This document shows, piece after piece, positions 8,382 through 44,193 of a DNA stretch of 44,563 nucleotides. This stretch comes from Alloascoidea hylecoeti (Eukaryota). The stretch covers positions 348,478 to 393,040 of the forward strand of contig BCKZ01000013.1 of the NCBI GenBank assembly GCA_001600815.1, written 5' to 3'. The position numbers and the translations under genes are program-made. Below the pieces are notes generated by a model. That model had not been told where the DNA came from and made no database searches. It was given only the letters and a program-made list of their open reading frames with translations. How positions within the stretch are numbered: position 1 is the stretch's first letter; each line of letters begins with the position of its first letter.

Positions 8382-9812
8382 AATAACTTTTGATTTTTTA
8401 ATTGATATTAGGATAGATATGATTATAAGATAAACGAAAAGAAAAAAAAATAAATAAGTGTGACAAAAGACTCTCTATTTATATGACATTTAATTGTTTA
8501 GAACTAAATTTGAATAACCATGACTCCTTTCAAAATTACCAGATCGGAAATAGTCGTAACATTATATTATGATTTGAGAATTTATTATTATATTACGCCT
8601 AGGCATTAAATATGAAATGTTAATGTACTCATCGCAGGTTTTATATAACTGAATTCAATAAAGCATTAATATTAACTACTATGATACAGCTAATTTGTTA
8701 ATTATTTCTTCCAATCACAGTTCTCTCAGGTAATTTCGAATTTTCTCTTATTTATCTATAGCTAGTAGCCTAGTACAATATGATATTTTTATTCTCAACT
8801 TTTGCTGTCTCAATTGGAGAAGTAAAATATAGTTTTAGTGCTATAATTAATACTTCAAGTTTTTAATTGCATTTATTCATATCTTTCATTGCAGATCTAT
8901 CTGACCAATCAAATATACTGTATTAGTATTATTGACAATATAGATACCATTATAAACTTTTATATACTTAAATAGGAAACTTTGTAGAGCAATATTTTTA
9001 TACGTGTATGTTTATAATTACCTGCATCTCCATATTATAATTATAATACTCAATATTACTCATATTCATACAAAAGACTATAATATGAGAGCTACAATAA
9101 TATGCGACTATAAGATATACAATAAATTCACAACAAATGATTATAAGTATATATCAGCTCTTCCGAGACTAAAATAATTCGCGAACTTTTGAAACATAAT
9201 TCGTTAGAATATTTAGTTTACTGTCAAACACATTATCTCTAAACCTTATTGAATAATGTATAGTTACTACTTTCTAGTACTTTCTAGCTGTTAAAAATTT
9301 AAGTTTTATCTTATTCCATTAATATTAGAGTACTCATTTACTTCTAAGCTTATGTAATAACTAGCTCCACCCAGCGAATAAATTTCTGAAAAAGCGCGAA
9401 TTGTATGAAGAAACCCCCTTAATCGGTGATTTGAGTGTATAACTATGCATATCACATGTTTAGCTACAAAAACGCGCGCCAAAATTTTATATATCCGAGC
9501 AAGATTATAATAATAGTATATTAATATTACTGTTGACTTAGCTATAGGCTGTGGCTAATTATAACATTTCATTTAGAGAAATTGAATGAATGTTTGCCGT
9601 TCAAACCTTAATGTTAATATAGGGTGACTTCCATATAGTTATAACATGGGGTACGGAGAGAGAGAAATAGTATATTAAGTATATTAGCTATTTGAGTTAT
9701 AAGAAATTTGTCTTCGAATTAACTCCGTAAGCGAGGATCAGAATCTCCAGTCTTGCGGTTGGTAAATTTATAATTAAATGGCACGCACCAAAAAAAACAC
9801 AAAAGGAAGTTA

Positions 9813-10799
9813 AAACATTGTTTAAAATTTAAGGAAATTATTTATTATCTATGTAAAATGTACCAAATATCTTTAATGAGACACGAGAGAATCTGGCAGT
9901 TTTTTTAATGTATTATTTGGTGTCGCTCCCCATGTGGAATATACCGTTAATGGGGGCATGTTCTCCGCATAATTCACCATTCGACGACTTCATCGATGTT
10001 AAGAATATGTGATACAAACATTGAAATCCCTCTTACAACTGCACTAACTCTAGAAAATGGCCCATTCAAGTTTTTCAATGANTTGAATGCTTTTTGTGGN
10101 TCNGNNNNNTNNNTNNNNTNGNNNANNNNNNNNNAANATANNNAAGNNANNNNNGNNNNNNNTNNNNNNNANANNNCNNTNNCNNNNNNNNNANNTCNNN
10201 NAANNANNTNNNANNTNNNTNNNCNNNNNNTNNANNNNNNNNNANTNNTNNNNTNNNNNNNNNNNCANNTNNNTNNNNNNTGNTTNNNNNNNNANNNNNN
10301 TTNNAANNNNNNTNNNNNNNNAANCANNNNNNANNNANNTGNNNNNNNNNNNANNNNANNANTNNNNNNNNNTNNANNNNNNGNNNANNNANNTNNNANN
10401 TNNTTNNNNGANNTNNNNNNNNNGNNANNGNNNTNTNNNNNNNANNNNNNNCNNNNNTNNCTTNNNTATNTTNNNNNNNNNTNNNCNANNNNANNNANNN
10501 NNCNGANCCACAAAAAGCATTCAANTCATTGAAAAACTTGAATGGGCCATTTTCTAGAGTTAGTGCAGTTGTAAGAGGGATTTCAATGTTTGTATCACAT
10601 ATTCTTAACAACGATGAAGTCGTCGAATGGTGAATTATGCGGAGAACATGCCCCCATTAACGGTATATTCCACATGGGGAGCGACACCAAATAATACATT
10701 AAAAAAACTGCCAGATTCTCTCGTGTCTCATTAAAGATATTTGGTACATTTTTTTAAACATAGATAATAAATAATTTCCTTAAATTTTAAACAATGTTT
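9813..10799. repeat. Inverted repeat (arms ~9813-10099 and ~10508-10799) flanking a 408-bp N-rich core (10100-10507)
   Basis: The arms are reverse complements except for a substitution (9996/10611), a 5-nt indel (~9854/~10755) and a mirrored N pair (10082/10525). Called bases in the core are mirror-symmetric about 10303/10304. Confidence 0.9.
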
Positions 10800-11213
10800 A
10801 AGTTTTTTTGTTTCTTTTAGCGCACGGCTGGTCTGAACTTCACACAATATATTCGTAACCTTAACCGTAACCTTACTTCGTCCTTGCATTACCGTGCATA
10901 TCCAACAGAAGGTATAAGCTTCTCTGTCTAATTCACCAAACACAACCATCACAAATCCAAAATTATGATGGACAAAGAATATCTTCCGACAAACAAACTT
11001 GGGGAGTAAATAGACAATAAAAAGCAAGTTGAAAATCTTAATGTCAGTGTACACTGTACGACACCGTTGAGAGTATTCTAAACACTTTTTGTAACCCTCT
11101 GTCTTATACATCAAAAGATCATTACAGTGTTATATCTTAGGTGGCATATCTAATCAAGTTCAAATTTAATTTAATCATTAGCGATATGTTGCTATAATGG
11201 ATGATAGCGGGTG

Positions 11214-20549: not shown

Positions 20550-22286
20550 TGATGATATATAACATTAAGTATAACATTAATTTTAATCAACTAACGTTTC
20601 CAAGCGCTTATAACTTGCTACCGTCATTGACTCGATACTTGGCTTTCCGTAGGCTACATATGTGTTCCTTTTGTGTTCAGCTTTTTCACATATTTAACTT
20701 GAAGGAATTCATGACCATGCTATCCGATACTTCTATTTGCTTTATGGGTTCTAACATTTTTTACTATCCCTTAAAATGGATCAATTATTGACTTCCGCTC
20801 TCATTTCCTTGTCAAAGTCCATACTGTAACTTGACTTAGCCGTCATCTAAAATCAACTTTTAGTAAGAAGTTCCGGGAAAGGGGTACACTCTAAAGTCGA
20901 ATTAGTGTTGCGAAGTATTTCTTCAATATTATGCATGCAACTTTACATATTACTACATAAGGAAATATCACATCATGCATATATATTCACTCATTTGGAT
21001 AAGGGTAGTTTTATTGTACGCATATGCAAAATCTTAAAATTTGATGATCTTAACTATTTGTATAGCGAAATCGGGGGACTCCTTAATAATTAAGAATTAA
21101 GGACAAAAAAATTGACAAAGGAGTGCAATAATTAATTTGAAGCAAACATTTACATATCTACCTTTTGTCATCTTTAATATAAGCGATTTTGGTGTTGTGC
21201 GATTATAAGCCATCTAGGTAAATGTGGAGTACTGATCTCTACCTGTTTATGAGTAAACTCTACTTTTATTTATAGTATCCAGAGATATTGGTAACCTTTG
21301 GGCAGACTGCTTAATACTGTAGAAACAATACTTTCAGGAGGATTGAAAGCACAATAATCAATAACTTAATCAATCATGAAAAATTGTCTACAATCATGGC
21401 TCTTCTTTCTTCTTTGCTTTACATGAAAACTTGCTGTCGTAATCTAGTAATAAACTATAATAGGGGAAACTATAACTTATATTAGGTAATTCCATTTACT
21501 GTATACGCTACAGTTTGTTTGACTTTTATCTTATCTCACAGAGAAATTCTGTCCCTCATTCTTCTCCATTTTCCTTCGTCTACGTTTGTTTGAAAGTCAC
21601 AAATAACTTAAGATATATTAACCAACCACTCGCTATCTCCAATAATATAATCATATATAGCTAACTAAATAGTTATATAATTAATGTATTATTAGCTTTT
21701 CCATTCTTATAGAACTAATAAACATTTGCTGAAGATTAAATATTTGACTTGTATAAATCCAAAACTTGAATTCTCTGTTCAGAATTTACAAACGAGTTAA
21801 AATAATATCTTCCGATCAAAACTATATAAACTGTACCTATATATTCTGTATGTTTTCACCTTAATTTGAGTCTCTCCTCCGAAATCAACTGGCTTTGTAG
21901 GCCAAGGAACAATGGAAAAGGAAAATAATACAGTATTAGTTGTAGTTAAAGGTATATTGAGTGCATATGATAAGGAAATTTCCGTATCTGAAGTCTGAAA
22001 ATATGCTACTAGTTATATCAATGTTGTTATAAGTAATATTACTTTTGGTAGATTCACAGATTTTGGGATACAACCGTATACATGTAAGGCTTATACATAG
22101 GTAGGTTTTGTAATTAAATAAAAAGAAAAACTCCCCATACTAAAGATTATAAAGAATTTGAAGGTGCTTTATGACGACGATAACATTAAACAGAATCAGG
22201 TTAAATTATATTAATATTAAGACACTCGAAATTTATTTAAGCAAAGATGTTTATTTACAATTTTCTATAGATTATAAATATTTTAA

Positions 22287-23664
22287 TTATTTTTTCCTTA
22301 AATTTTCAGTAAAATCATAAATAACACCATCATCCATAGTGAAAGTAACTAGTCTTTTCGAATCAGCACCAATTGAAAAAGCAGGTTGTATCTTCTTATT
22401 AAATCTTTCATGTTCTAAAATTTTAAATTCTGTAAATAATTTTAGATCATTTATATTCCAAATTTTAATAGAAGAATCGCTATTATCAGAAATGATTTTA
22501 TTATCAACTGAGAATAATTTATATACTCCTTCATTTGAAAAAGTATTTATTGTTTTGTTTGTTTGTAAATCCAGAACCCCTAGCTGGTCATATATTTACC
22601 AACAAATAAGTTTTGATCCCTTACTGTGATGCATCCTCTATGACCATATATATATATAATTCTTGGATTATTTGACCAGTTTCAATATTCCAGGATTTCA
22701 CATTATCAGAATCTGCACAATAAATAATACCATTATGAATGTTGGATATATTACACTCTTAGAACAGTTCACTAAAGAGTCGATTGGCGCCGCTACCATG
22801 TTAAAGTTCAAAGTGCCTGTTCTCCCAGTTGCGCCAAAAAGCCAATCGACTCTTTAGTGAACTGTTCTAAGAGTGTAATATATCCAACAATGAACGCAAA
22901 GATCATGAAAGGAATATTTTTCTTCAAAATAGTGTTGTAAATTATATTGTAGTTGCTGTTCTAGATTATCAGAACTTGTTTTCTAAGCCTCTATATCATC
23001 ACCACTACAATATACAATGTAATCATTGTATAAAGTAACACCTTTTATAGCTGTATTAGAAAGTCTTTCTAGTACCAGACGACCTACTTGTTATTTCTGG
23101 TAGTTTCCACACTAAACAAGAACCATCTTATGAACCAGAAACTAAATATTTGTCATTAATATCCAAAAAAAAAAAACAGCAAAAATAAAAATTGAGATTC
23201 GGATTAATTGCATCAAGCATTTCCATTCTTGAAAGATATTCCAATAAAATCGGAGGATTTGGGTCACCCAATACTTTTAAACATTAAAAAGTTTCTTTAT
23301 CCCAAATTCTTATTGTACAATCTGCTGACCAGTTATAATCCAATTTTTAAAGTATTTAACAGAATGTGTTTCCTTAGAATGACCACTTAATTTATGGTGA
23401 GTAAATTTATCATTTTTTCAATTCAAATCCAAAAGATGACGTTCCCTATACAATTCGTATCATGAATCCGTTTCCGAATCATCATTACATTATTTCCATG
23501 ATATTTAAGCTTGAAACTTTAATTTCCATATAATCATCATTATCAACCATTTGTTTCCATGATTAAGAAACCCTTCTACAATTAAGTAAAGTTTTTAGTG
23601 GCAAATCTAAGAATATTATTTCTAATACTTCATCAGGGAGATCGGAAACAGAATCTAATGTCAT
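22287..23664 (-). pseudogene. F-box/WD40-repeat protein pseudogene, interrupted by a 150-bp insertion
   Basis: From the ATG at 23664: MTLDSVSDLPDEVLEIIFLDLPLKTLLNCRRVS*SWKQMVDNDD (F-box). Then DS*YELYRERHLLDLN*KNDKF..LSGHSKETHSVKYFKNWIITG/ADCTIRIWDKETF*CLKVLG and further WD repeats (KSWNIETGQIIQEL; DSSIKIWNINDLK). It ends ...GADSKRLVTFTMDDGVIYDFTENLRKK* at 22287. In-frame stops at 23563, 23460, 23418 and 23284, plus several frameshifts. Confidence 0.88.
22740..22889. mobile_element. 150-bp non-autonomous element (MITE-like): perfect 49-bp TIRs, TGTTG...CAACA termini, 5-bp TSD ATGAA
   Basis: 22740-22788 is the exact reverse complement of 22841-22889, with a 52-bp spacer. ATGAA lies at 22735-22739 and 22890-22894. 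Removing the element plus one TSD restores the host frame FHDLCVH|NGIIYCADSDNVKSW. Confidence 0.92.
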
Positions 23665-23949
23665 TCTAAGTTTTTTGTGTAAGACATATTGTAATTGTTT
23701 AAAGGTGTGTTTACGTACTCGTGGTTATCAATCATTATAATATGACAATATGGCTCTTTAGCAACTCAAATACCAAAAATGTGGGAAACCAAGATGCTTT
23801 CTAGGATCGGTTTTTTCTCACTAGCAATCTTCTTTGATGATGTACTATTGAGTCGATTGCAAACGGTAGTTCGAGGAAAAAATATGATATGTATTTTACT
23901 TATTATTAAATAATTATAACTATATTAATTATATATTACAACGTTAACC

Positions 23950-42018: not shown

Positions 42019-44193
42019 TTGTTTGCTTTTTTATATTACCCTGAAAACATTACATGTAGTTGTTTCTCTGTATTAATTTGTTTAATAAAATTTGAATATT
42101 AAATTAGATTTGATGTCTCTGATTTTATAACTAATTATGGTAACCCTTTATATGAAGATGATTATCAATGCTATTCTAAGGATTTTTGGTGATACATGTA
42201 TTTACATATTAATATTTTGGAAAGTGCTGAAGAATGGCGGACTGATTATATAGAGAATATAATATTTATAATTACGATAGCCATAATATCCAAACTAAAC
42301 AAATATACAGGTGAAATGATAGAACAGGAGGTATTATCAATTAACCACACGAAACTACGTATAACTGAGAATATGCGTAGACTATCACATATCTCATAAC
42401 ATAAAATCTAATTAATGTTAGTTTATTGTAAAAGTTAATTAGGAAAAATTCAATTTTTGTTCACTCTCATATAGCAAATACGAGAAAACGAGCTTGTCCG
42501 TTAACAATGTTAACAATTGATCTCCCCTCAATTGTGGTATATTTTGTGATGTGCTTTACTTTAGAACTTATTTCGAGACATCCTAGTATAAATGTTCCTT
42601 AATGTTTCTGCTTTGAATTAGTATCTTTTGACTACATTCTCTATTAAGAGGTTGTTTGTAATTAAAGGTTATTCAAATTTGATAATATCACTATGTTTGG
42701 TATTGAACACCCATTTTGTGAAGAAGGCTCATATTGATGATGATTTACTTATGAACACTGGATTTTATTCACAGCTTTTTATAGGAAAATGAATTAGTTA
42801 AAAGATTTGTTTGTTTAATAATCTTAAGTAAAAAAAATGTTCATTTGAATTCTAAAATATTTTATGGTGCTAGTCCCTATTGCCATACTTTTTTCTGATG
42901 GGTAAAAACGGGCGATATTCTACAATGCAACATATATCTACATTATATCACATATATTACGAATTGAAATCATGCAATTGTGGGGCATTTCCTTAGGTTT
43001 AATACGATTACTAATTATATATTTTTTTCATAGTAACAAAAGCTCTCTACCTGTTGATGATTGTTAACGTTATTATCAGAATTTCGCTAAGCGGGATTTC
43101 AACTACCAGGAATTCTACAAAGCAATCAAAACCAGATAAGTATATTGAATTTCGCCAATTAAGAAGCAGAAGGGTAATATTCCACGTACAACTGTGTGGT
43201 TTACGGTAAAGAATTAACCCTAGCAACTCTTCTAGATTAATATCTTCTCAAATAAGAATGCCTATAACACTTACTAAAAGCGTGGTAAATCAAATTCTGA
43301 GAGTTGTAAAAAATCTTTCTTAACGAGAAAAAGTAAAGGAAAGGAACAGAAAGATATGTGCTATAACTTCTAAATATTTATAACATAATTAAGCCTGTGT
43401 TTGTAAGTCGTACGGCAAGGGCTGGAATTTGAAAAGTAGTTTGGAAAGGAGGTCGTACTAAATTGTATAGAGTAGTGGTGGTGTAGTAACCTATAAGGGC
43501 GCTAACACTAATTACCTAATTATATAATTTGTAAACCGCTTAACTATGGTGTTCATGCTATCGTAGTTGCTCCACCAATCCAGTTTTGATGTTTCATTAA
43601 CAATTGGAAACTTATAATTAAGCCTGGATTAAAATACTGGTACCATTTGTAGGATTTGGTACCTATCAAATATTTTGAGTTACACATACATTTGTGTGGT
43701 CATTACATTATCCATGTGCCCTTGCCTGGTCGTATATATAAGGCAGCTAATCTGGAAGATTTACGTGAAAGACCTTCTCTGAAATCTGAATCGGTCAAAA
43801 TTAATTCACCAAACCAGAAGAATAAAAAATGATTATCATTAAGAGAAAACATAGTATTCTTAAGCTTACNATCAAGNTATTTTATCATGNTATCCTTATA
43901 TACATATATTTATGGTATTTTAGGGCGCGTGGGCCAATAATATCTTGANTGATAATAATTATAAGCTTAACTAAATAACTAAATAAAATGTAATTAGCAG
44001 TTTTTAAAAAATATTAAAGAGAATAAAAAAGTGCTGGCGATACAATAATAACAATAAAATTTCATTCCAAATGTGATTTTCGATCGATATGAAGAATATA
44101 TTTCAAAGATATAGANAAGAGCTTTCTCCAAAAGAGCTCTAAATGTTACAAAAAGAATTATAGCAAAAGAAGAAAACAAAATTAATGGGATCT

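Follow-up and report, generated by a model that had tools for sequence, protein, structure and literature searches.

The palindromic DNA segment described here lies within a decayed gene of the yeast Alloascoidea hylecoeti and raises the question of whether it is a DNA transposon, as its ends suggest, or a product of reverse transcription. It is located in a stretch of 44,563 bp (contig BCKZ01000013.1; hereafter the window) which contains the genes for ATG9, an MFS transporter, an iron-type alcohol dehydrogenase, RPN5, COPI alpha and others. The Nop14 protein of the window shows only 37–38% identity to its best named homologues (Pachysolen, Wickerhamomyces), and the organism is therefore a deep-branching budding yeast.

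The palindrome consists of two 49-nt arms (22740–22788 and 22841–22889) which are 100% complementary and enclose a spacer of 52 nt; its outer ends read TGTTGG...CCAACA. The initial annotation had described perfect 49-bp terminal inverted repeats (TIRs), a 52-bp spacer and a flanking ATGAA on both sides, and positions as well as complementarity are borne out. A 28-nt word of the arm has two matches in the window, one in each arm, versus none in each of 100 shuffles. Folded as single-stranded DNA, the 150-nt element reaches a predicted −59 kcal/mol (z = −16.7), a value equalled by none of 200 shuffles, and its GC content amounts to 40.7% compared with 29.8% for the window. With a perfect 49-bp TIR, TGTTG ends and a 5-bp target site duplication (TSD), the outer features of a MITE (a non-autonomous DNA transposon moved by cut and paste) from a Ginger2/TDD-like or another TGTNR-ended family are all present. 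The TIRs of Ginger2 are 50–180 bp long with TGTNR ends, its TSD measures 4 bp, and the TSD of TDD-4 and TDD-5 is 5 bp according to the sections consulted of PMC2836005.

The host gene documents the event itself. As already stated for this locus, it is heavily decayed: stops and frameshifts are found and the coding sequence is broken over three frames, with the F-box piece at 23563–23724. An exhaustive protein search with the 102-aa C-terminal piece of the host gave 2172 WD40-type matches with E <= 0.001; when longer proteins were searched by a word-based method with the 102-aa WD40 piece, there was no match. An intact relative of 446 aa (P0214) possesses both an F-box and WD40 domains. The host piece upstream of the element aligns to residues 270–300 of P0214 and the downstream piece to residues 299–326, and the two alignments overlap by two residues because the target site was duplicated. 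After removal of 22740–22894 in silico the minus-strand frame is open across the joint (...HDLCVH/NGIIYC...). The insertion point is free of gaps in 21 of 21 aligned F-box/WD40 relatives, namely P0214, its 19 close relatives and the fragment P0141, which can serve as paralogous empty sites. The earlier claim that precise excision restores the F-box/WD40 frame (DLCVH/NGIIYC) is thereby upheld. Because removal restores the frame and all 21 relatives are uninterrupted at the site, the palindrome is proven to be an insertion in an F-box/WD40 gene. It is located in a pseudogene and probably has no function.

The host is a member of an F-box/WD40 family that has expanded in a lineage-specific manner. 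For P0214 there are 19 relatives (P0272–P0290) of 321–517 aa and 44–62% identity, all on short contigs, and the next match falls to 23%. Further copies of the family are present as short ORF fragments, and many contigs of 85–95% likeness overlie the host locus. An F-box/WD40 expansion of this kind is unusual for a budding yeast.

Table 1 The palindromic element and its host gene, with positions in the 44,563-bp window
Feature	Position	Strand	Evidence
Decayed F-box/WD40 pseudogene (host)	22287–23724	-	F-box PF00646, E 9.4e-7; family relatives
Left TSD copy, ATGAA	22735–22739	.	Single unbroken sequence in relatives
Inverted partial LTR copy, corresponding to LTR nt 1–49	22740–22788	+	100% complementary to 22841–22889; blastn of the 91-nt unit
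PBS-like tract of 13 nt, complement of a tRNA 3' end ...ACCA	22786–22798	-	Directly adjoins the ...AACA end of the LTR unit
Complete 91-bp LTR-like repeat unit TGTTGGA...TTTAACA, dispersed	22799–22889	-	Loose ends of contigs with unrelated flanks
Right TSD copy, ATGAA	22890–22894	.	Contigs starting at 22862/22864 cross the junction into the flank in 4/4 runs

To see which part of the inserted DNA is dispersed, Logan contigs from four public runs (X1 and X2, both of one sample; X3; and X4, a wood-decay metagenome) were aligned to 22000–23700 at a likeness of at least 85%; 556, 585, 498 and 498 contigs, respectively, were placed. Among the contigs listed, loose ends with a foreign flank occur before 22798/22799 (5 + 9 contigs in X1, 3 + 11 in X3 and 7 in X4) as well as behind 22889 (4 in X1, 3 in X3 and 3 in X4). 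The flanks before 22798/22799 are AT-rich and mutually unlike (agreement 0.53–0.60). Since the flanks are unrelated at both 22798/22799 and 22889, the dispersed unit is the 91-bp segment and not the 150-bp palindrome. The ends of this unit fit the motif TGTTRNR...YNYAACA, which is given as an integrase-recognition motif in the part of PMC3601003 consulted, and we infer that the unit is an LTR. At a single X2 contig a 19-nt loose end is found at window position 22748, which we take to be a Nextera-type library adapter and hence a library artefact.

At the 91-bp unit the summed word depth is hundreds to more than 1000 times that of the single-copy flanks, which is not a copy number: a summed contig depth of 1,200–1,900 times the flank predicts about five copies per window, versus one present, and is thus unusable for this purpose. 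Within the unit the depth is uneven. Over 22798–22854, the PBS-proximal nt 36–91, it is about five times that of the neighbouring bins 22741–22797 and 22855–22911 in all four runs; the summed depth of X1 is 109,177 in this bin versus 19,516 and 19,856 in its neighbours, with about 60 in the single-copy flank. Subfamilies which have this part in common, truncated copies or over-counting are possible sources of the raised depth. Exact-word scans with two words of the unit gave no match in the metagenome, viral and genome contig collections. An identity with an Rfam family was rejected as well; the matches of the element to miRNA precursors are below threshold (the best one scores 48.2 bits, with a gathering score of 140) and are hairpin look-alikes.

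The contig data also bear on the idea of a propagating family with the 150-bp palindrome as one of its copies, in which fold-back LTR mini-elements would be made and inserted repeatedly by the machinery of a retrotransposon. Arms and interior are indeed highly repeated, and 53 of the 556 contigs of X1 fit two places. However, the common edges at 22799 and 22889 mark the 91-bp unit, and a foreign flank before 22740 is found in only one contig (X2) among those listed. To our knowledge there is no mechanism by which a fold-back LTR mini-element could be copied, which likewise counts against a family of this kind. We regard it as quite improbable.

The second component of the insertion is the PBS-like tract. 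Its first 8 nt, TGGTAGCG (or CGCTACCA on the other strand; 22791–22798), have their sole occurrence on either strand of the window at this position. These 8 nt are presumably identical to the start of the Ty1 PBS. The A1:U72 acceptor pair is a hallmark of eukaryotic initiator tRNAs. The Ty1 PBS is described as 10 nt long and complementary to the acceptor end of the initiator tRNA-Met (PMC3592414, in part), and here the tRNA-complementary tract measures 10–13 nt, depending on the assignment of three overlapping nucleotides. Ty1-like LTRs have TGTTG...CAACA ends with TSDs of mostly 5 bp, and elements of the gypsy class often have a gap of 2–10 bp between LTR and PBS, as summarised in the pertinent sections of PMC4139406. 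ARAGORN found no tRNA gene within the 44.5-kb window, and the insertion is therefore not tRNA-adjacent.

Some contigs match the window down to 22786 and then diverge (one in X2, two in X3 and one in X4 among those listed), and this divergence past the 13-nt tract would look like the pattern of an LTR–PBS–internal region. In the X2 and X4 contigs that diverge before 22786, a tRNA B-box-like motif, GGTTCGAGTCC, follows the 13-nt tract, and in X3 a TGTTG motif is located only 16 nt past the tract. These observations, made on one or two contigs and a consensus of 30 nt, hint at a very small internal region and a TRIM-like element.

Read on the minus strand, the order of the parts is LTR(1–91), the PBS-like tract and the reverse complement of LTR nt 46–1. 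A 3-nt overlap GCC/GGC joins the PBS-like tract to the inverted LTR piece: GGC at 22786–22788 forms the last three nucleotides of the inverted arm and is common to the PBS, so that 46 nt are unambiguously new. The outer end on both sides of the element is LTR nt 1. This three-part anatomy, the borders of the unit, the abutment of the PBS-like tract, the TSD and the uninterrupted site in the relatives are direct observations. They separate the locus copy from a solo LTR, since the TSD flanks 22740–22889 and not 22799–22889, and from a TRIM, since the second LTR copy is inverted and comprises nt 1–49 only and a PPT is missing.

The same anatomy speaks against the transposon reading. The TIR-bounded unit is not the repeated unit, and the interior of the palindrome is the rest of the LTR-like unit with its own TGTT...AACA ends, which a complement of a tRNA 3' end abuts exactly. 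In a MITE, both the LTR-like interior and the abutting tRNA complement would be coincidences. Furthermore, the target differs from RTATAY, the one reported for Ginger2 (PMC2836005), and the distribution of Ginger in the sections of that source at hand covers protists, fungi (one vestige in the basidiomycete Malassezia globosa) and animals, with no budding yeast named. A MITE of the Ginger2/TDD or a related type is thus considered highly improbable. Of the two origins offered in the initial annotation, the Ginger/TDD-like one accounts for the outer features (TIR, TGTNR ends and 5-bp TSD) but not for the interior, which is the 91-bp unit plus a tRNA complement. The other one, inverted LTR ends moved by an integrase, was essentially right, except that it is not two LTR ends that are combined but a whole LTR, a PBS and the inverted start of an LTR.

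A further possibility is that a normal element was inserted and rearranged later, with inversion of one LTR and an internal deletion. Recombination between LTRs is common, and nothing more specific favours this course of events. However, the inversion would have to coincide exactly with the LTR borders and a subsequent deletion would have to stop at nt 46, with perfect arms and the TSD retained, and this course is regarded as extremely improbable.

The window contains a second palindrome, with zero spacer, at 9794–10818 (core 9855–10752), bounded by perfect 227-bp inverted repeats at 9855–10081 and 10526–10752. Its 444-bp centre contains 306 N in an exactly mirror-symmetric arrangement, and 31% of the positions are called. 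This centre looks like a consensus of both orientations of the segment between the inverted repeats; possible reasons are an invertible segment, an unresolved one, or masking. The ORFs listed in 9794–10818 are artefacts. Five isolated N positions are found at 43870–44116.

With a suspicious palindrome and its mirror-symmetric Ns in the same window, an assembly artefact has to be considered for the 150-bp palindrome too, in which a mis-join through a high-copy short repeat would have made the inverted arrangement. The high repetition of the unit and the breaks of the Logan contigs all around it would fit a mis-join; among the contigs listed for the four runs none spans the junction of arm and PBS or the left junction. 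However, an identical LTR end adjoins an identical 5-bp sequence at both outer junctions, and the frame restored by their removal is unbroken in all 21 relatives. Only three nucleotides are common to the arm and the PBS side, too few for an assembler to join them. The right junction is found in all four runs, and X1 contains 0.96 of the sampled words of 22000–23700. The 150-bp palindrome is confirmed to be real, and a mis-join as its source is very unlikely.

How could an LTR, a PBS and an inverted LTR piece have been joined? Plus-strand strong-stop DNA (+sssDNA) is by definition composed of the LTR and a short copy of the tRNA primer. LTR(1–91) together with the PBS part matches exactly this content. 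The element is most likely a one-off, inert insertion of an aberrant cDNA of an LTR retrotransposon or TRIM family with a 91-bp LTR. More specifically, we consider it fairly probable that +sssDNA (LTR plus PBS) folded back or was mutually primed, that it was extended up to its 5' end, and that its integration produced the customary 5-bp duplication. The priming tRNA, the origin from +sssDNA, the making of the second strand and the action of the integrase are parts of this course that we infer.

In this sequence of events, the +sssDNA would fail to undergo second strand transfer. The 3' end of the stalled molecule could then pair via GCC/GGC (2–3 nt) with nt 47–49 of its own or of a second plus strand, and reverse transcriptase would extend the paired 3' end to the 5' end of the template, that is to LTR nt 1. 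The product would carry the same integrase-recognised LTR end (TGTTGG...) at both termini, and the integrase of the element would insert its duplex form with a 5-bp staggered cut (ATGAA) into an F-box/WD40 paralogue that was already non-essential. In a variant with mutual priming, a nascent plus strand paused at nt 49, before a run of five T, would pair 3'-to-3' with a finished +sssDNA, which would directly yield a blunt 150-bp duplex; this variant is speculation.

Several single steps have counterparts in other systems. The Ty1 integrase inserts blunt fragments which share only TG...CA with Ty1, with a 5-bp TSD, and "composite" Ty1 insertions arise where the template is switched, or priming is erroneous, on replication intermediates that have paused (both in the sections consulted of PMC2939329). 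The same source, citing Lauermann and Boeke 1997, states in a passage on replication that +sssDNA ending in a 12-nt tRNA complement piles up as a dead-end product; the length of 10–13 nt of the present tract includes the 12 nt of Ty1. Self-priming of strong-stop DNA that leads to fold-back dead-end products in vitro is described for the minus strand of HIV-1 (PMC6088434, in part).

Other results argue against the snap-back reading. In the predicted fold of the LTR plus 13 nt, the 3' GCGCC pairs with LTR nt 55–59 and not with nt 47–49. Pairing at nt 55–59 would give an arm 8 nt longer than that seen, and the junction therefore needs a microhomology of 2–3 nt or a slip. The predicted fold is no more stable than its shuffles (z = −0.18). 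In addition, a simple fold-back hairpin has one duplex end only, and a two-ended duplex made via mutual priming is a guess. The locus copy, which is without a PPT, is the single example to which the snap-back reading refers. Self-priming of the Tf1 type was rejected, as the LTR is without a complement of the 13-nt tract. In the literature covered, to which subscription journals mostly do not belong, no published description of an integrated palindromic or inverted LTR–PBS(–inverted-LTR) product was found.

Regarding the age of the insertion, contigs starting at 22862/22864 run from the right arm through the TSD into the flank in four of four runs. The right-junction contig of X3 and X4 differs from the window by three letters and two gaps; at 23094–23095, which is among these differences, the entire depth in X3 and X4 supports another reading. 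Because all four runs carry the right junction and the flank of X3 and X4 differs, the insertion is common to two genotypes. The view that it is probably recent, expressed when the unmutated arms were first noted, is thus not supported: a recent insertion is not demonstrable, and at that level of divergence the perfection of the arms is hardly informative about age. None of the 15 joints listed (of 78) skips 22740–22894, which is no evidence either way regarding an empty-site allele.

If the origin from +sssDNA is true, the locus is a natural fossil of a side product of reverse transcription. It would then record the exact 5' end of the +sssDNA (LTR nt 1) and the run of this molecule into the tRNA primer over 10–13 nt, in a yeast remote from S. 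cerevisiae, and it would show that an integrase accepts a molecule with the same LTR end twice. For annotation the locus is a trap, as the combination of TIRs, TG...CA ends and 5-bp TSD may pass for a MITE or a transposon of the Ginger type. In a more far-reaching version, snap-back strong-stop DNAs would be made and integrated repeatedly in this yeast, and the palindrome would belong to a MITE-like family that descends from an LTR retrotransposon and is propagated by its integrase, with no RNA genome of its own. This version appears very unlikely; if true, it would be a route from a retroelement to a palindromic "DNA-type" repeat. On the whole, the element is rated as belonging with the known insertions of aberrant retroelement cDNA and not as a new element class.

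Among these, the composite and non-Ty fragment insertions made by the Ty1 integrase in S. cerevisiae are comparable, with a 5-bp TSD and blunt ends of the form TG...CA as in the present element (Friedl et al. 2010, PMC2939329, citing Kiechle et al. 2000; sections consulted). Like the composites described there, the element, as proposed here, would have been built by erroneous priming or template switching on PBS-ended intermediates. However, the Ty1 composites are laboratory events which join Ty1 pieces to transformed DNA (PMC2939329, same sections), whereas the present element is a natural, retained insertion in a distant yeast, composed of its own LTR only, in folded-back form. The dead-end +sssDNA of Ty1 has the same make-up of an LTR and a tRNA-complementary tail (12 nt in Ty1 versus 10–13 nt here), but it is treated as an unintegrated by-product in the passage concerned (PMC2939329), whereas the element appears to have been extended to a palindrome and integrated. 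The self-priming that minus-strand strong-stop DNA undergoes in HIV-1 likewise involves a 3' fold-back and extension by reverse transcriptase to a dead-end hairpin. It differs in that it concerns the minus strand, is driven by the cTAR hairpin and takes place in vitro, and integration is not reported in the parts of PMC6088434 that deal with it.

Long TIRs, TGTNR ends and a TSD of 4–5 bp are features which the element has in common with Ginger2/TDD transposons and MITEs as characterised in the consulted parts of PMC2836005. In contrast to these, an LTR plus PBS makes up its interior, and what is dispersed is a 91-bp unit, not the 150 bp enclosed by the TIRs. Solo LTRs and TRIMs resemble it in the short LTR-like unit, the 5-bp TSD and the PBS beside the LTR (PMC4139406 and PMC10886601, each in part). 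However, in the present element the TSD flanks a composite, and the second LTR copy is inverted and partial. With 91 bp the unit is also shorter than the LTRs of all 34 C. albicans families, for which 127–780 bp are given in the portion of PMC4139406 consulted.
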